A program made the position numbers and the translations under genes. Below the pieces are notes generated by a model, which did no database searches, was not told where the DNA came from, and was given only the letters and a program-made list of their open reading frames with translations. DNA of 64,000 bases from IMG/VR virus record IMGVR_UViG_3300044946_000078, positions 1 through 64,000 of that record; one strand, written 5' to 3'. This DNA comes from a virus. Positions 3,384 to 10,640 of the stretch are shown here, piece after piece. Numbering within the stretch: the stretch's first letter is position 1; every line of letters starts with the position of its first letter.

Positions 3384-3780
3384 CTTTAGATTGCTTGTAT
3401 TTAAGGAATAGTTCGCCTGTAGTAAGACGCCCTTCTGGATCATCTCCATATACCCATGAATGCCAATATCCATCCTCCCAATAAGAATAATGACAAGATT
3501 CACTATGAGTCCAATCGGAAAAATCAGTAGCTTCCTCTTGAGACTTGGCATCAATCAACTTATTGAGGGAATCGATATGTGGTTCTAAAATAGAGGGAAC
3601 ATATTCCGGCAATGACTTATTGTAACGTCTTACTACCTCTTCAAAGGATATTTCCTGGTCTCCTATAGCCTCCATGTCTTCTATCCAGGCATTGTTTTTA
3701 TCGGCAGCAATATATAATTCTTCCTTACCTACACATCGGCAGAACCAAGCTAAGAAAGCGGCCATCTTTCTATCTTCCAT
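3370..3780 (-). CDS. hypothetical protein
   Basis: ORF in operon. Confidence 0.6.
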   Translation of the reverse strand: MEDRKMAAFLAWFCRCVGKEELYIAADKNNAWIEDMEAIGDQEISFEEVVRRYNKSLPEYVPSILEPHIDSLNKLIDAKSQEEATDFSDWTHSESCHYSYWEDGYWHSWVYGDDPEGRLTTGELFLKYKQSKDDPS

Positions 3781-4328
3781 TATCTTTTATTTAAATATTT
3801 GAGATAATTCTCGGCATATCTTTGTAAAAAGTCGGGACCAACCCATGTTTCTATTTGACCGGCCTTGTAGGCATAAATAAAACACTTGATCATATCTTCT
3901 TCTGTGTATGGTTTCCCAGCGGCTTTATAGTTGGCAATAATCTGATTTACGACCCCAATATCTGGATCTTTATAAACATGGTACCCTTCACGCTCCAATA
4001 GTTCTTTTGCCGATTTAATCTTGAACTCTTTCGATACTGGCTCAAATTCAACCATGCTGAGAGAGACATAATACCCCATACCACGGAGTAGTTCTTTTGC
4101 TTTAGCTACTTCGTGGTCTTCTTCAGGAAGGAACCAATTGACGTCAAGTACGTCGGCCTCAGTAATACCATATACGATTCTATTCTCCCATATATATTTT
4201 CCATTTTTTTGATGAAAGCACCACTCAGGATAATATCGATTATCATAATCGGGATCTTTTAAAAATTTTGTCCCTGATTTATGCCCCGGGAAGTCCTTTT
4301 GAAGGATATATACCTTACTGTTGCTCAT
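3780..4328 (-). CDS. hypothetical modular protein
   Basis: Internal repeat AKELL..GY.V twice; C-terminal YTEEDM module. Confidence 0.65.
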   Translation of the reverse strand: MSNSKVYILQKDFPGHKSGTKFLKDPDYDNRYYPEWCFHQKNGKYIWENRIVYGITEADVLDVNWFLPEEDHEVAKAKELLRGMGYYVSLSMVEFEPVSKEFKIKSAKELLEREGYHVYKDPDIGVVNQIIANYKAAGKPYTEEDMIKCFIYAYKAGQIETWVGPDFLQRYAENYLKYLNKR

Positions 4329-4566
4329 TGGTATTTGTTTTTAGTTCGCCCATCAATAGATCCTTTAACTCTTGGTATTGGATCTCTGTAAAGTCTTTTT
4401 CGTAAAATGCTTGGATTAATGACTCTTCCTCATATTCACTTGCCGGAATTACAAACACATAATAGTCCGGCATTTTATCTTCCAGATGCTTACGTAATTT
4501 ATCATCTATGACAGACTTACCATTAATCATTGGTATTCTAAATATTACTATTGGCTTACAGTTCAT
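4315..4566 (-). CDS. hypothetical protein
   Basis: ORF in operon. Confidence 0.6.
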   Translation of the reverse strand: MNCKPIVIFRIPMINGKSVIDDKLRKHLEDKMPDYYVFVIPASEYEEESLIQAFYEKDFTEIQYQELKDLLMGELKTNTNEQQ

Positions 4567-4599
4567 TGATAAGTATTTTAAAGGTTTGTGCCGGGGTTG

Positions 4600-4869
4600 T
4601 CATTTCTTTGTTTTTTTGGATTGCGGGACCGGATCAAGAGAGGTAAGCCCATCAGTATGTAATACACTTATTCTATTGATTCCAACATAGTCATGAGGCA
4701 ATGGGATACATTCCGATGCATCAGCTGAGGCTGGCGGCTCTCCCCACCATGTAAGATAGGTTTCAATTACCTCAGAGATCGTCGTGCCAAGTTTTTTTGC
4801 TTTCCTTGCGGCTCTATTATAATATTTATCCGCTATCTTGTAAGAATGGACATTTCTTTTTGCCTTCAT
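4600..4869 (-). CDS. ribbon-helix-helix transcriptional regulator, first gene of the leftward operon
   Basis: VHSYKIADKYYNRAARKAKKLGTTISEVIETYL; directly downstream of a promoter. Confidence 0.65.
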   Translation of the reverse strand: MKAKRNVHSYKIADKYYNRAARKAKKLGTTISEVIETYLTWWGEPPASADASECIPLPHDYVGINRISVLHTDGLTSLDPVPQSKKTKK

Positions 4870-4874
4870 AAAAA

Positions 4875-4922
4875 CAAAAGTAAATTACGTATTGCGTATT
4901 ACCAAATTAATTCTTACCTTTA
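4875..4922. promoter_or_regulatory. overlapping divergent Bacteroidota sigma-A promoters
   Basis: Minus strand: TTTG(4906-4903)-N20-TACTTTTG(4882-4875). Plus strand: TTG(4892-4894)-N20-TACCTTTA(4915-4922). Confidence 0.7.
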
Positions 4923-5010
4923 TTTCACCAACGGTTAGCAGGTTTTATTTAGGGTACAGCAATACAGCCCTGGGCATTTACTCGGGGCTCTCTTTTTTAA
5001 AATCACAACA

Positions 5011-5229
5011 ATGGCTTTTTCTAATAAACAGAGGGACGCACTCATTGCTGAACGAGGACAACCAAAATTACGTTTAGAGTTTGATGTGTTTGAGGATGAA
5101 CGAGTATCTATGTGGACACATTTCGATCATAGTGATGATTTCGGGGCAGTTAAAAACCGCCTTGAAGCAATAAGAGATCATTTAAACGAGTTCTTGCGTG
5201 ATGAAAATATGTGCCCGTTTCACAAATAA
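5011..5229 (+). CDS. hypothetical protein
   Basis: ORF with A-rich leader after the divergent promoter. Confidence 0.65.
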   Translation: MAFSNKQRDALIAERGQPKLRLEFDVFEDERVSMWTHFDHSDDFGAVKNRLEAIRDHLNEFLRDENMCPFHK

Positions 5230-5490
5230 TTGTTGACTATAGATTTTATAATGATGACAAGTAGAGAATATAGATATCGTATGGCCGCAAATTTAACTCG
5301 ATTATTGGATCAACAATGGAGAGAGAGATCGGATTTAATGATTAGAAAAATTTTTGAATCTTTCGCTCAATATAACGCGGCTGCAACAAAAGTGGAAATG
5401 ATCGACGGGCATATCCATGTATCTATCGTTTCGCCACTGGATGTTGATCCACATGATCCGACAATTATTTATCACAGTTGTTCCGAATAA
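5230..5490 (+). CDS. hypothetical protein
   Basis: ORF; start uncertain. Confidence 0.45.
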   Translation: MLTIDFIMMTSREYRYRMAANLTRLLDQQWRERSDLMIRKIFESFAQYNAAATKVEMIDGHIHVSIVSPLDVDPHDPTIIYHSCSE

Positions 5491-5601
5491 ATTCATAAAT
5501 TCGTATCAAGGCCGTGAGCAATTCAGCCCGGCTAAAAACAAAGGCAACTATACCCATTTACACACAGGCATAATTAATTGAAAATGTGGTAGTTGTTGGA
5601 T

Positions 5602-5757
5602 TTAAGGCTTCTTTTCGTCCTTTTTGGTATCCGCGTGCTTTGCGGCGGCTTTCATTACATCAAAAAATGAACCAGTAACCCCTAGTTTGGAATCGTAGTT
5701 TTCCTTTCTGGGCTTCTTTGCTGGTTCTTTTTCTTTGGGGGCTTTAGCCTTCTTCAT
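5602..5757 (-). CDS. small Lys-rich protein (51 aa), tIS passenger
   Basis: Manually translated MKKAKAPKEKEPAKKPRKENYDSKLGVTGSFFDVMKAAAK...; below the ORF-track cutoff. Confidence 0.6.
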   Translation of the reverse strand: MKKAKAPKEKEPAKKPRKENYDSKLGVTGSFFDVMKAAAKHADTKKDEKKP

Positions 5758-5787
5758 GCTATGAAGTTACAATTTTGGAGCGGGATT

Positions 5788-6066
5788 CTATCGCTTTTTC
5801 TTAGCCCTCTTATCAGCTTCGCATTGATTGTAAACAAGGTCAATTACTACCTTGTCATCTACTCCCAATAAGGCCGCGATCCTAAAGGCGTCTTTGAAGG
5901 TGAACCCTTCCGGATTGTCCAGGAGCTTGGATAATGTTTGATGGTGCATACCCAAGTCTTTCGCTAAGACGGTCTTTGGCAAAGTATCGGTAATCTCACG
6001 AAAAGTTTTGATAAACCCGGCTGAGATTAGATTTTTCACCGTTCCGTATCGCTTATCCTTTGACAT
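5788..6066 (-). CDS. Xre/Cro-like HTH regulator, tIS passenger
   Basis: KTVLAKDLGMHHQTLSKLLDNP...DAFRIAALLGV. Confidence 0.8.
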   Translation of the reverse strand: MSKDKRYGTVKNLISAGFIKTFREITDTLPKTVLAKDLGMHHQTLSKLLDNPEGFTFKDAFRIAALLGVDDKVVIDLVYNQCEADKRAKKKR

Positions 6067-6137
6067 TCAGCAAAGAAAAGGGCAAAGTCTTATACAGACG
6101 TATATTAGGTCATACAATTACGGTAATTCCATCTAAT

Positions 6138-6158
6138 TCTGACGTTCATTACGTCAGA
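6138..6158. promoter_or_regulatory. putative operator, TCTGACGT-N5-ACGTCAGA
   Basis: Perfect 8-bp inverted repeat between divergent genes; extra GACGTA half-sites near 6097 and 6163. Confidence 0.55.
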
Positions 6159-6201
6159 TATTGACGTATTCCGGGAAGTATTGCTATATTGGGTGCCATA
6201 A

Positions 6202-6507
6202 ATGGGTGCTATCCCCCGCCGACGCCATATGACACCAATGCTAAGAACCAAAGTCGATATAGTCGATTGCTTTATCGCTGGTGACCCTATCGTTTATGAG
6301 CTTGTTATCTGGGATTACTACGACTATGTTCTATCCTACGTGAATGAATACGTAAAGGACAAGAAAGCGGCCTTTATTATTGTGGGGCTTGTATTCGCCC
6401 AATTGTGGGCACGGCGCAAGACCCTACACCGAGGTACATCTATGCTCGCCCATATCAACCAACAAATAGATAAAACACTAGGACCCAAGACCAACCTTTT
6501 TTATTAG
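6202..6507 (+). CDS. ECF sigma-70 region-2-like protein lacking region 4, tIS passenger
   Basis: AGDPIVYE...YYDYVLSYVNEYVKDKKAAFIIVGLVFAQLWARRKTL resembles the N-terminal half of Bacteroidota ECF sigma factors. Confidence 0.6.
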   Translation: MGAIPRRRHMTPMLRTKVDIVDCFIAGDPIVYELVIWDYYDYVLSYVNEYVKDKKAAFIIVGLVFAQLWARRKTLHRGTSMLAHINQQIDKTLGPKTNLFY

Positions 6508-6531
6508 AAGTCAAGGTTTATTCATTGATTC

Positions 6532-6559
6532 GGGGAGGGTTTCTACCTTCCCCTTTTTT
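6532..6559 (+). terminator. intrinsic terminator
   Basis: GGGGAGG-GTTTCTAC-CTTCCCC followed by a T tract. Confidence 0.75.
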
Positions 6560-6568
6560 ATATGCGAA

Positions 6569-7087
6569 TCAAAAGATATCCTTCACCAATGAAGTCCCCT
6601 CAAGGCTTACTAAATATTCTATTGCTTTTTTAAGCCTTTGTGGTATATTATCACGTAGAACATCCACATCATAGAAATACATTGAATGAAATCCGGTATA
6701 AGAAAAGCCGTGTATTGTAGCTTTAGTAGCCCCATCTAAAACATATTCGCAAGAATCCGAATAATTGAAATAAAGTGTTATGGTCAAACACGGGAATATA
6801 TATCTAGTCTCGGCTGTATTATAATCAATTGAAAGATCAACCTTTTGGACTTTTGCCAGATTAAGGTGATGTTCTTTGTAATTTGTCATGGACTGTGTTG
6901 TTCCGTTATCCGTATGGACAAGATAACCGTCTTGGAAAAAATAGCTATCACTAATGTCTAAATAAGGATGATGGCTAAATTTATCTAAGTAGAATTCTAT
7001 CCATTTTTCGGTATCCGATTTTGTTTGTCCAAAAGAAGTAGAAATAAAGAAGAAAGACATAAGGAATGCCAAATTGAACGCTTTCAT
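6569..7087 (-). CDS. secreted hypothetical protein, tIS passenger
   Basis: Sec signal peptide MKAFNLAFLMSFFFISTSFG followed by Q, typical of Bacteroidota. Confidence 0.75.
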   Translation of the reverse strand: MKAFNLAFLMSFFFISTSFGQTKSDTEKWIEFYLDKFSHHPYLDISDSYFFQDGYLVHTDNGTTQSMTNYKEHHLNLAKVQKVDLSIDYNTAETRYIFPCLTITLYFNYSDSCEYVLDGATKATIHGFSYTGFHSMYFYDVDVLRDNIPQRLKKAIEYLVSLEGTSLVKDIF

Positions 7088-7119
7088 TTTAAAGAGCCTA
7101 AATACCTTAGTCCCCTTAA

Positions 7120-7310
7120 GGTGGTATGCAAAAAAATAGCGTGGGACATTATAGCTCTACCGTAACGAGGTACTGGCATACCCTTCAACCAATAGAACAA
7201 ATAAGCCCACGCCGTAGCGTGAGCGTCCTTTGCCCTCTATCTTGGTTGAATTGAAAAGTGCCAGTTTTCGTTACAAGATCGAAGCTAAAAACGCGCTAAA
7301 TATGTTATGT
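7120..7310 (-). ncRNA. putative structured RNA leader upstream of the secreted-protein gene
   Basis: Nested complementary segments 7162-7169/7267-7274, 7171-7179/7258-7266 and 7184-7192/7242-7250; apical hairpin 7205-7224; U tract at 7130-7136. Confidence 0.65.
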
Positions 7311-7315
7311 CGTGG

Positions 7316-7347
7316 CGAATGTAATTATCCGCTTACGAATCACCAAA
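7316..7347 (-). promoter_or_regulatory. sigma-A promoter driving the structured leader
   Basis: TTTG(7347-7344)-N20-TACATTCG(7323-7316). Confidence 0.7.
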
Positions 7348-7616
7348 GCCTTTTTTATTGTGCAACGCCCCTGGGAAAGAATGTTCTTTCTTTTTTTTGG
7401 ATATTAATTCTACATGCACTTATTTTGTAGCAGTAAAACGGAGGTAAAAAAGAAAGCTGGGTGTCCGCCCAGCTCCTAAATAGAAAAATAAAGTCGGTAA
7501 ACTTAGGGGGTCCACCTAGAAATTCTTTGACCAGCAAGTCATCGAAAAACACCGTAAAATCGGTGGGGGACTCTCTTTTTCCTAACACAAATATAGGGCG
7601 ATGCCCACTAATAACA

Positions 7617-8132
7617 ATGAGTTCCAAGGAAAAAATATTACGAAACATTATCGACCAAATCAGAGAGTGTGAATCTAAGCTCACCCAGCTTAGGAATGCG
7701 CATAGCGCAATGAAGGATCTTCCTGACTATATATTTGAAAGTCAAGGCTCTCAGGGTTCTTTATTTACTAACACGATAATAGATATACCGGTTGAACAAG
7801 AAAGTGTGGAAATTGATCAAAGCCATGGTAGAAATAAGAGGTTGATTTTTAATATTTTAGATGAAAGCAATAAGTCTATAACCCGGAATGAAATTGAAGA
7901 AAGATTCAGAGAAATGATTAAAAGCGATCGAGATGAAAAGAAAACGGTCAATAACGCTCTGTCTGCCTTGGTAAAAGATGGTGACGTAAAAGGCTACAGG
8001 CCCAAAGATATTCCAATTAGGGGCAAATTCTGGAGTCTTTCTCGTTGGTGGTCAGGAGAATATATAAAACAACAGCATAAACCAGACCCAAACGACTACT
8101 TAAATGTAGAAGACGACGAAGAAGACGATTAA
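7617..8132 (+). CDS. coiled-coil plus putative winged-helix protein, tIS passenger
   Basis: Likely start MSSKEK; LIFNILDESNKSITRNEIEERF...TVNNALSALVKDGDV is wHTH-like; acidic tail. Confidence 0.65.
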   Translation: MSSKEKILRNIIDQIRECESKLTQLRNAHSAMKDLPDYIFESQGSQGSLFTNTIIDIPVEQESVEIDQSHGRNKRLIFNILDESNKSITRNEIEERFREMIKSDRDEKKTVNNALSALVKDGDVKGYRPKDIPIRGKFWSLSRWWSGEYIKQQHKPDPNDYLNVEDDEEDD

Positions 8133-8299
8133 AAAAGCTAAAGGGCCAAATGTATGGCCCTTGTTCCCAGCATGCTGATCTCATTAGTCGGCAAAAAAAG
8201 AAAGGATTAGCACTCGTCAATATATGCGGTGTGAGTCCAGGACTCAGGGAAAATCACCAGTCCCATTAGCTGGAAATGATAAAGCCCCTTCTTTCTTTC

Positions 8300-8335
8300 A
8301 AACCCTCGCTATTAACGGTAGCGGGGGTTTGTTTT
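8300..8335. terminator. hairpin terminator between the convergent passenger gene and transposase
   Basis: AAACCCTCGCTA-N7-TAGCGGGGGTTT followed by GTTTT. Confidence 0.7.
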
Positions 8336-8346
8336 ATAAAGATACG

Positions 8347-9306
8347 TCATTTTGTGACGTTTTTTGCGCCTGTCAGTTCCTTGTAAGTAAGGCGGCTATT
8401 AGCGCAACGTTCTACAGCCTTCTGGAATCTTTGGATATTAGAGTAGTCCCGCTTGTTGTACCTATCGGAAAACTCGTCCGCGTACCGTTGTAAATGCTGG
8501 GGCGAAACTGCGTGGTGTGTACCGGATAACCCCCTCTTAAATAGGCTCCAAAAGTTTTCTATCCCGTTGGTACTGAATGCTCCATTTACGTATTGGCCAT
8601 CCAGATGATTTACCGTTATATGGAAATAGTCATTTTTGAGCGAATTATAGGAGGCCCAGGTATCTGTTACCATAATACTGGACTTCTCGATCCACCCTTC
8701 GACAATAGGTATTAAGGTTTCGGCTTTAGCATCAGGGACAATCTTTGTCCTTACCTGTCCTCTCAATCCCTGAGCGCCAAATACCATAGTCTTTCCTTTA
8801 GCAGACCGACCGTGGGCATTTTTTATCCTTTTGTCCGCGTGCTTATTTTTCTCCTTTCCACCTATGATGGTTTCATCCAAAACGGCATAGTCTTTTAGCA
8901 AAGCGGGTTCAGTTTCTTTGAGCATATTCCTAAGACGGTGGTTAATAAACCATGCCGTTTTCTGGCTCGTCCCGATCCTGGATGCCAATTCTACGGAGCT
9001 AATACCGTTCTTACAGATGGATATTTCATACGCAGCCTGTAACCACTTCCGGAACTCTACTTTGCTACCTTCAAATATGCTACCAGTCCGCACTGTAAAG
9101 GGCAAGCCACATTCACGATTAGCGCAACGATAAGACGATATATCGGTGAACTTTCCACGGGCCTTTACCTTGTAGAACTTAGCTGATCCACAATGCGGAC
9201 ATACCGGAACACCGCCCCACCTTACTTGTTCAAAGAACTCATAGCAGGTCTTTTCGTCCTTAAAGTAGTCGTTAAATTCGTGGATAGTTTTGAAGGCAAA
9301 GTCCAT
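8347..9306 (-). CDS. IS1595-family (ISXO2-like) DDE transposase
   Basis: Zn ribbon CPHC..C...C, SQKTAW HTH, catalytic LDET / VTD / IENFW. Confidence 0.95.
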   Translation of the reverse strand: MDFAFKTIHEFNDYFKDEKTCYEFFEQVRWGGVPVCPHCGSAKFYKVKARGKFTDISSYRCANRECGLPFTVRTGSIFEGSKVEFRKWLQAAYEISICKNGISSVELASRIGTSQKTAWFINHRLRNMLKETEPALLKDYAVLDETIIGGKEKNKHADKRIKNAHGRSAKGKTMVFGAQGLRGQVRTKIVPDAKAETLIPIVEGWIEKSSIMVTDTWASYNSLKNDYFHITVNHLDGQYVNGAFSTNGIENFWSLFKRGLSGTHHAVSPQHLQRYADEFSDRYNKRDYSNIQRFQKAVERCANSRLTYKELTGAKNVTK

Positions 9307-9325
9307 TTTGTTGTTATTGATACAT

Positions 9326-9357
9326 CAAAGATAACAACTGCGTGTAACATCTCCTAA
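9326..9357 (-). promoter_or_regulatory. transposase promoter
   Basis: TTAG-N20-TATCTTTG. Confidence 0.6.
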
Positions 9358-9435
9358 TATTTTAGACTCTTTTTTTTACTTTTTACCCGGTTTTAATTTG
9401 CGTGTATTTGGGTATACTCGCCAAAACAAAATATC

Positions 9436-9675
9436 ATGAAAAGTTCAGTAAAAATCGATGTCGATTCCGCCAGTCAGCCAATCTTACACGTTCAGGTTTA
9501 CTACAGTGGAACGGATGATGTTCGCGACAAGCTCCTGCAATTATTTATTTCTGCCTCTGTGGACCATGGCCTCTTTCTTGAGGAGGGATTTAAGTCTGAA
9601 GACGGGCCTCAACAGTATATTATTCGCCCCAAAAACCAGGTGAATTTTGTTGAGCCAGACGCAGAAGCAGCCTAA
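9436..9675 (+). CDS. hypothetical protein (leader interrupted by the tIS)
   Basis: ATG lies 5 bp after the right TSD. Confidence 0.65.
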   Translation: MKSSVKIDVDSASQPILHVQVYYSGTDDVRDKLLQLFISASVDHGLFLEEGFKSEDGPQQYIIRPKNQVNFVEPDAEAA

Positions 9676-9701
9676 TTTTACACTCACGTTTTACCCACAT
9701 C

Positions 9702-9744
9702 AAAGGCCCGGCAGATGATTTCTCCCATCTGAACGGGCTTTTTT
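9702..9744 (+). terminator. intrinsic terminator
   Basis: GGCCCG-CAGATG...CATCTG-CGGGCT followed by a T tract. Confidence 0.6.
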
Positions 9745-9824
9745 CATTATCTTAGCTCCAAGTCTCCCACAGTGAGCATTACTACAAACTGCACCAGTAT
9801 TCGGGCGGATAAATCATTTTTTTT

Positions 9825-10076
9825 ATGACAGTAAGACAACTCAAAGACTTCCTGGATCAATTATCAGACGATGCCCAAGTGCTTATCGAAACTGACAAAG
9901 AAGTCTTTATTACTGCTTGCCAAGCTCAATCCGAAATTATAGATTTATGCCTGGATGATATTCCTGACGACGAAGTAAGCGACAGCGATATTCAACCGGC
10001 CCTCGTTCTACGGCCATGCACTTGTCATACCGAAGGCGAAGTAATCCCGCAAATGGACGCCCTGATCATGAATTAA
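9825..10076 (+). CDS. hypothetical acidic protein
   Basis: MTVRQLKDFLDQLSDDAQV, a common phage N-terminal motif. Confidence 0.7.
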   Translation: MTVRQLKDFLDQLSDDAQVLIETDKEVFITACQAQSEIIDLCLDDIPDDEVSDSDIQPALVLRPCTCHTEGEVIPQMDALIMN

Positions 10077-10084
10077 GCCGGTTC

Positions 10085-10620
10085 GGGGGCCGCAAAGTTG
10101 CGGCCCCCGGTTCCCCACAACGCCCTTTAAATTCTCCATAAAAAGAGGGCACCCTTATTCCCATTGGCTTTCATAACCAAGCACCTTCCCCATAAACACC
10201 CCACCGTTCTTAAAAGAGGACCAATCCCAAACCGGGTATATCCTAAAATAACCCCCCGAAACCTTCACGTCTCGACCTCAGAGGCGCCCCCCCCTAGATA
10301 GCGAGCACCCCCGCCAATGGGGTTTTGGCCTTTAATGACCCCAGTGGCATCGATAAAGGCATTCCAATAGGCCAGTGATGGAATAGGAATGGAATTCAAT
10401 GGATTGGAGGGGCCGAACTGATTTTGAACACTGTTTTAGGCTGTTGGTAGAGACTATTTGGTTAATGGGCTGTTTGCCAGGTCTGTTGTGGGGATTATGG
10501 TGGAAACTATGGCGATAGGTGTTTTAGTTCGCTGCTGGGGCTGTTTGGTGGCTCTGTGTGGATTGAGAGGGCTGTAGTTGGATGAGGAGATTTATTTTGG
10601 TGGATTTATTTGGAGGTTAG
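10085..10620. other. non-coding region, candidate genome terminus, pac site or origin
   Basis: Longest ORF-free stretch; GC hairpin 10085-10108; C-rich to ~10315 then G/T-rich; GGAAT and CTGT repeats. Confidence 0.5.
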
Positions 10621-10640
10621 ATGATAGTAATGTATATTTG
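10609..10640 (+). promoter_or_regulatory. consensus sigma-A promoter
   Basis: TTTG(10609-10612)-N20-TATATTTG(10633-10640). Confidence 0.8.

Follow-up and report, generated by a model that had tools for sequence, protein, structure and literature searches.

The 64-kb stretch of IMG/VR virus record IMGVR_UViG_3300044946_000078 analysed here (the window) carries at bases 5543-9422 a 3,880-bp element that is very probably a single transposable unit, namely a passenger-carrying ("transporter") insertion sequence (IS) of the IS1595 family lodged in phage DNA. A perfect 8-bp target-site duplication (TSD), AAAACAAA, directly abuts both arms of a pair of terminal inverted repeats (TIRs), as seen by direct reading and by script. 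The TIRs are 24 nt long, are complementary at 19 of 24 positions (79%), and were the first-listed, longest inverted-repeat pair within 5300-9700. A 21-nt terminus pattern matched twice in the 64 kb, exactly at both ends, where shuffled sequences gave an expectation of 0.00, and no third terminus-like site was present in the window with up to three mismatches allowed. An initial annotation of this region had proposed an intact IS1595-family passenger transposon inside the phage; the 19/24 TIRs, the perfect TSD and the intact transposase on which it was based were all found again by inverted-repeat listing, direct reading and profile searches, and ends, TSD, transposase and sister elements agree on that assignment. 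The features of the element are listed in Table 1.

The transposase matched PF12762 (E = 2.3e-39, 135 bits against a cut-off of 27), the zinc-ribbon profile PF12760 (E = 4.2e-13, 49.5 bits against 25.4) and NF033547 (181.9 bits against 75). Aligned with 15 relatives whose identity ranges down to 37%, it retains every invariant column, including D144, D215, E250 and R258; K257 is nearly invariant in the same alignment. The zinc-ribbon cysteines are also retained, C61 being invariant and C36, C39 and C66 nearly so. By their positions, D144, D215 and E250, together with the basic residue, are the predicted catalytic residues. The IS1595 traits present are a DDE domain, an N-terminal zinc ribbon, an acidic triad with a downstream basic residue, short TIRs and an 8-bp TSD. 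The zinc-ribbon DNA-binding domain is common to the IS1595 family and IS1, and passenger-carrying IS1595 elements have '+' subgroup names (ISPna2+, ISNwi1+). The best relatives of the transposase, with 86, 84, 81 and 78% identity, are all on metagenomic contigs.

A motif scan of all fetched loci retrieved 19 other complete elements with the same termini, 18 of them in bacterial or metagenomic loci (Bacteroidota metagenome-assembled genomes [MAGs] and metagenomes) and one in a phage record, ranging from 2,981 to 5,741 bp. Perfect 8-bp duplications flank 17 of these 19, and the duplicated sequences are 86% A + T; because so many sister elements with the same termini have perfect AT-rich duplications, we regard the termini as genuine and the whole unit as that which moves. 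The element boundaries in two loci, L007 and L008, were located by comparing both copies from one Sediminibacterium MAG. A search for termini up to 400 nt upstream of related transposases had found none, since the transposase sits deep inside most elements.

The two Sediminibacterium copies (L007:535-5007 and L008:5068-8605) lie at separate sites with separate TSDs, and their transposases are 98% identical to each other and 70-71% identical to that of the phage element, while their cargo is partly unlike. Their transposase-side termini read GGCAACTATACCCAAATACACGCAAC and their far ones GGCAACTATACCCATTTACACG; they agree with those of the phage element at 19-22 of the first 24 positions and show the same AAA/TTT asymmetry: the "AAA-type" end lies upstream of the transposase in both, and the "TTT-type" end was found in both and in 17 others. 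Their 8-bp TSDs are likewise AT-rich. They differ from the phage element in being chromosomal, in carrying other cargo (for example a DUF433 protein) that flanks the transposase on both sides, and in having the terminal micro-protein described below only as a partial match near the far end. A Bacteroidia MAG (G008, which holds L010) has nine terminus matches on seven contigs, 3 forward and 6 reverse; this is the top count of family ends in any one genome seen and suggests active spread there.

The kind of element, a cargo-carrying IS1595 transposon, is already known; in the text of PMC3129680 that cites Siguier, Gagnevin and Chandler (2009), members of the IS1595 family that carry passenger genes are called transporter IS (tIS). 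The phage element and its sisters share with these a transposase with a zinc ribbon and DDE_Tnp_IS1595 domain, short TIRs, an 8-bp duplication and unrelated passengers. Unlike transporter IS in general, the Bacteroidota group has a characteristic terminus, GG(C/T)AAnTATACCCAnnTACACG, every complete copy seen is 3.0-5.7 kb and cargo-bearing, and nearly all copies have a conserved lysine-rich gene of about 50 aa beside one terminus.

This gene was recognized in an all-against-all comparison of open reading frames (ORFs) from the 19 elements first compared, in which only two protein families were common to the elements, the transposase and the micro-protein. Homologues of 45-57 aa adjoin a terminus in 16 of those 19 elements, with partial matches at the same place in L007 and L008, and in most cases the gene reads outward and its stop codon stands 60-66 nt away from one terminus. 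At the core of the protein the motif Y-(D/E)-E-K-L-x-V-x-G-(S/T)-F-(L/M)-D-(I/V)-(M/I)-K-A is conserved. Differences among the copies fall mainly on third codon positions (3256, versus 1837 at first and 1389 at second positions) and only this frame is open; the region is therefore protein-coding rather than merely conserved subterminal DNA. Searching 1.84 billion representative proteins with a micro-protein profile gave 217 clusters at E ≤ 1e-3, nearly all of 40-60 aa and standalone, and no consistent fusion occurred among the longer proteins. The micro-protein had no match in Pfam, NCBIfam, PHROG, PADLOC or PDB, which is not in itself evidence that the gene is undescribed. Its fixed position by a terminus suggests an accessory or regulatory role in transposition. 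The initial annotation had counted five passenger ORFs; all five exist as described and four are cargo, but ORF 5602..5757 is this conserved core gene of the family.

Table 1 Features of the IS1595-family element and its borders in the 64-kb window of IMGVR_UViG_3300044946_000078.
Feature	Position	Strand	Details
Left TSD copy	5535..5542		AAAACAAA; matches 9423-9430 exactly
TIR, end distant from transposase	5543..5566	+	GGCAACTATACCCATTTACACACA; "TTT-type" end
Core gene, 51-aa lysine-rich micro-protein	5602..5757	-	Reads outward; stop codon 59 nt from terminus
Cargo, 92-aa Xre/HigA-like helix-turn-helix (HTH) protein (weak)	5788..6066	-	HTH_3, E = 1.5e-3; phrog_4441, E = 1.5e-4; TIGR02607 (HigA), E = 3.6e-4, below cut-off
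Perfect palindrome ACGTCA-N5-TGACGT, operator-like	6151..6167		Between divergent HTH and sigma-like cargo genes
Cargo, 101-aa sigma-region-2-like stub	6202..6507	+	TIGR02985, E = 2.2e-6, profile positions 9-56 of 162, far below cut-off
Cargo, 172-aa putative secreted protein	6569..7087	-	Hydrophobic, signal-peptide-like N-terminus MKAFNLAFLMSFFFISTSFGQ, by eye
Structured non-coding leader of 172-aa gene	7088..7350	-	Minimum free energy -85.3 kcal/mol; z = -4.75; 0/200 shuffles fold equally well
Cargo, 171-aa orphan protein	7617..8132	+	Hairpin terminator 8141-8162
Palindrome ACGTCA-N5-TGACGT, second copy	8344..8360		Overlaps transposase stop codon, at terminator-hairpin position
IS1595-family DDE transposase, 319 aa, intact	8347..9306	-	Pfam and NCBIfam profiles; alignment
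TIR, transposase side	9399..9422	-	GGCGAGTATACCCAAATACACGCA in inward reading; "AAA-type" end
Right TSD copy	9423..9430		AAAACAAA; ATATC next, ATG at 9436

The phage record is linear, 75,624 bp long and 67% complete according to CheckV, and encodes a large terminase, portal, virion proteins and an exonuclease. Its large terminase matched only phages of Flavobacterium, Cellulophaga, Tenacibaculum and Maribacter (approximately 28% identity), and this resemblance to phages of Flavobacteriia alone supports a Bacteroidota host independently of the element. The insertion lies between ORFs 5230..5490 and 9436..9675 in a run of small plus-strand ORFs. Direct reading confirmed its placement 5 bp before the 9436 ATG, with the right TSD copy followed by ATATC and then the ATG. 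Upstream transcription now probably stops within the element, short of 9436, since plus-strand terminator-like hairpins inside it (6532-6553 and 8299-8331) would abolish read-through.

Bases 3500-10627, both junctions among them, are matched without a difference by a 10,584-bp contig of an independent Logan assembly of the probable source run. A run of a second soil study has, all at a depth of 2-3, 151-nt pieces that match both phage flanks and three places in the element interior perfectly. The insertion is evidently tolerated, because the phage assembles at about 14x depth and occurs in this second study. Among the Logan contigs of the two soil runs there was no empty-site joint, no variant and no other element-bearing contig, rare variants being beyond the reach of contigs. 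Neither the empty-site 24-mer CCCGGCTAAAAACAAAATATCATG nor each flank alone had a match in IMG/VR, the two flanking phage proteins had no IMG/VR relatives, and blastn of 5000-10000 against INPHARED returned nothing. Both source-run Logan contigs end at 10598-10627 of the window, the loose end being a G-rich homopolymer-like run; this break has the appearance of a local assembly fault and lies outside the element.

Two related phages also carry the family. The first, a distant relative (G004; 71,639 bp, CheckV 100%, with inverted terminal repeats) has a large terminase 33% identical to that of the present phage and bears a 5.36-kb sister element (L194:7437-12794) with the TSD AAAATAAA and a transposase of 61% identity. 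Both elements are phage-borne and have the micro-protein and an Xre-type HTH gene, whereas the remaining cargo differs and the insertion sites are not homologous. The G004 record encodes no tyrosine or serine recombinase. The second phage (G005), whose large terminase has 38% identity, shows a solo end at L195:7687-7815: the terminus and about 130 nt of interior, with 94% identity to the end of the element L008 of Sediminibacterium. Within the first 16 kb of G005 there was no partner end, and the record is without a transposase; the solo end is either a truncated element or part of one larger than the fetched stretch. The G004 element and the G005 solo end indicate repeated encounters of this phage clade with the element family, at sites that are not homologous. 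The G004 element, too, has an ATG 5 nt past its TSD; this ATG opens a frame of just 29 codons, and we discarded the shared TSD-to-ATG spacing as a coincidence for that reason.

Some observations weigh against treating the 3,880 bp as one mobile unit. The two termini are unlike at 5 of 24 positions, and the transposase-side end reads GGCGAG, in contrast to the GGCAAC or GGTAAC of most relatives. The exact element is also known in one copy only, that of the 75.6-kb record, and no donor copy or excision product was seen in IMG/VR or in the contigs of the two soil runs, which cannot exclude rare variants. With a single copy and no donor, empty site or excision product, the mobility of the phage copy itself is deduced from its relatives. 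It could be argued that only a minimal IS, the transposase with nearby ends, is mobile and that the 2.8 kb to its left are native phage DNA with a look-alike repeat; compact arrangements do exist, as in the relative L088, where a terminus lies merely 73 nt past the transposase stop codon. We rejected this reading as highly improbable, given that no inner terminus was found, that the TSD encloses the full 3,880 bp, that the far end bears the conserved micro-protein module of the family, and that all 19 complete sisters are at least 3.0 kb with cargo within the TSD. Repeats of the IS type often cause mis-joins in short-read metagenome assemblies, and a host copy could in this way have been joined wrongly into the phage contig. 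Such a chimera is barely credible and was likewise rejected: both flanks are phage DNA bearing exactly the 8-bp duplication that a true insertion would leave, two assemblies agree and are unbroken at the element ends, and the element is on no other source-run contig.

The initial annotation had further called the insertion recent and had taken it to imply that the phage DNA persists in the host in a carrier, plasmid or prophage state although no integrase is visible. The missing integrase was borne out, PF00589 being absent from the whole 75.6-kb record, as are the serine recombinase (PF00239) and ParB (PF02195) domains, in a record that is 67% complete. Insertion while the DNA resided in a host cell (as prophage, plasmid-prophage or carrier), the phage being temperate or pseudolysogenic, seems doubtful to us. 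It would accord with a survey of isolated phages in which transposases were common in temperate and very rare in virulent phages (PMC8136500), and a lysogeny module could sit in the part of the genome that the record lacks. However, none of the three markers of such a lifestyle is encoded in the record, the contig has no host flank, and the same structure would arise if the element transposed into phage DNA replicating in an infected cell; moreover, both recombinase types are absent from the CheckV-complete G004, which has a sister element, and from four other viral records with family ends. The claim of persistence is thus not upheld, and the presence of the element does not show that the phage is temperate.

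Nor could the insertion be dated as recent, since no empty site, donor or second copy was found and the identical pieces in the second soil study fit a fixed insertion better. That the insertion is old and fixed, domesticated in the phage lineage with its cargo serving the phage, is a possibility that we entertain tentatively. It would explain the identical element and phage pieces at matching low depth in the second study, the lack of an empty-site contig in the source run, and an element G + C content indistinguishable from that of the flanking phage DNA. On the other hand, nothing in the perfect TSD or in the intact transposase with all its invariant residues points to decay, rare variants are dropped from Logan contigs so that a minority empty site would go unseen, the two soil studies may be one campaign, and the locus is shared by no related phage from which its age could be measured.

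By analogy with the family, the zinc-ribbon/DDE transposase would recognise the two termini of about 24 nt and insert everything between them into an AT-rich 8-bp target, here duplicated as AAAACAAA. Between the termini lie three contents: the transposase, the conserved gene of about 50 aa at the opposite terminus, and a swappable cargo slot, which in the phage element is filled by a pair of small proteins that putatively bind DNA, by a sigma-region-2-like stub and by a putative secreted protein with a structured leader. The likeliest source of the element is the Bacteroidota host of the phage, probably a member of the Chitinophagaceae, and the insertion lies in an A-rich intergenic stretch among small early-type plus-strand genes, with 5 nt between it and the 9436 ATG.

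The assignment to the Chitinophagaceae draws on the transposase and the termini. The named relatives of the transposase are from Chitinophagaceae, Ferruginibacter, Sediminibacterium and Flavipsychrobacter, the closest having approximately 70% identity. In an even, phylum-wide sample of 400 other species, the strict terminus pattern turned up once, in a genome (G091) of the very family in which the Sediminibacterium MAG is placed; of 100 other species of this family, 3 had the pattern. As the initial annotation had suggested, the element therefore carries host information: transposase relatives and terminus distribution are a moderate pointer to a Chitinophagaceae host, without identifying the host. 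This gives a host lead for an uncultivated soil phage.

The cargo is nearly wholly unlike from one element to another. Homologous copies have the same ends, and the four cargo proteins of the phage element had no relative in the approximately 190 fetched loci or in the stretches covered of the two related phages, their first 20 kb and 16 kb, so that neither of the refuting findings named in the initial annotation was made. None of the five non-transposase ORFs matched PADLOC at E ≤ 0.1, and the element region had no Rfam match below E = 0.6 and no tRNAs. The 101-aa ORF matches a Bacteroidota extracytoplasmic function (ECF) sigma factor in region 2 only and is followed by the terminator at 6532-6553. 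In the Atlas, look-alike clusters of the 172-aa protein (score 0.94) consist of hypothetical proteins from Bacteroidota; a fold of the CNP1-like or bacterial-PH-like type is no more than a lead, and a single-sequence AlphaFold2 (AF2) model was unusable, with a predicted local distance difference test (pLDDT) value of 39. Upstream of this gene, the leader of approximately 260 nt forms a long rod-like RNA structure in the folding prediction and has no Rfam family and no match in the sister loci. A search of 5.8 billion proteins with the 171-aa protein found itself alone; in a low-confidence model its residues ~62-145 possibly form a winged helix, with FUR, PadR and MarR as weak look-alikes.

The cargo of sister elements in bacterial MAGs is more readily recognized. 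It includes SoFic (E = 2e-58; L009:4712-5878) and PD-Lambda-2_C / Beta protein (E = 2.3e-45; L010:4125-5189), the latter gene adjoining a DUF3800 gene, and also DUF433, ImmA/IrrE, Bro-N, P63C and DUF1036 proteins. Because this cargo includes defence, toxin-antitoxin and phage-type regulator domains, the family moves conflict-type and phage-type accessory genes. It is conceivable, though we consider it unlikely, that this IS1595 group, seen chiefly in Chitinophagaceae-type Bacteroidota, is a dedicated shuttle for conflict genes between bacterial chromosomes and phages lacking recognisable integrases, with the micro-protein as a new group-defining accessory factor of transposition; the conflict genes would then be SoFic, PD-Lambda-2, the toxin-antitoxin parts, the phage-type regulators and the unrecognised module of the phage element. 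With known defence genes in the sisters, the unannotated cargo of the phage element is a sensible target in the search for new functions in phage-host conflict.

To the known transporter IS, the present analysis adds a Bacteroidota group defined by its termini, a terminal micro-protein, defence cargo in sister elements, and an independent insertion in a complete, recombinase-less related phage. The element in the window is a well-bounded case of a bacterial transposon that has moved a multi-gene payload into a phage without visible lysogeny genes, and, together with the sister insertion in G004, it indicates that such phages can acquire host-type cargo through transposition. The terminus motif retrieves the whole element family, and a widespread, unannotated micro-protein travels with the transposase.

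Two short features recur inside the elements. The perfect palindrome ACGTCA-N5-TGACGT has two copies in the 64 kb, both within the phage element, against an expectation of 0.06 per window with up to one mismatch, and the pair may represent a shared operator or a cassette boundary. In many members of the family (for example L015, L017, L037, L094, L096 and L098), the transposase stop codon lies within a hairpin, either in its stem or in its loop, and a T-run comes next; this structure is kept while its sequence is unrelated between elements.

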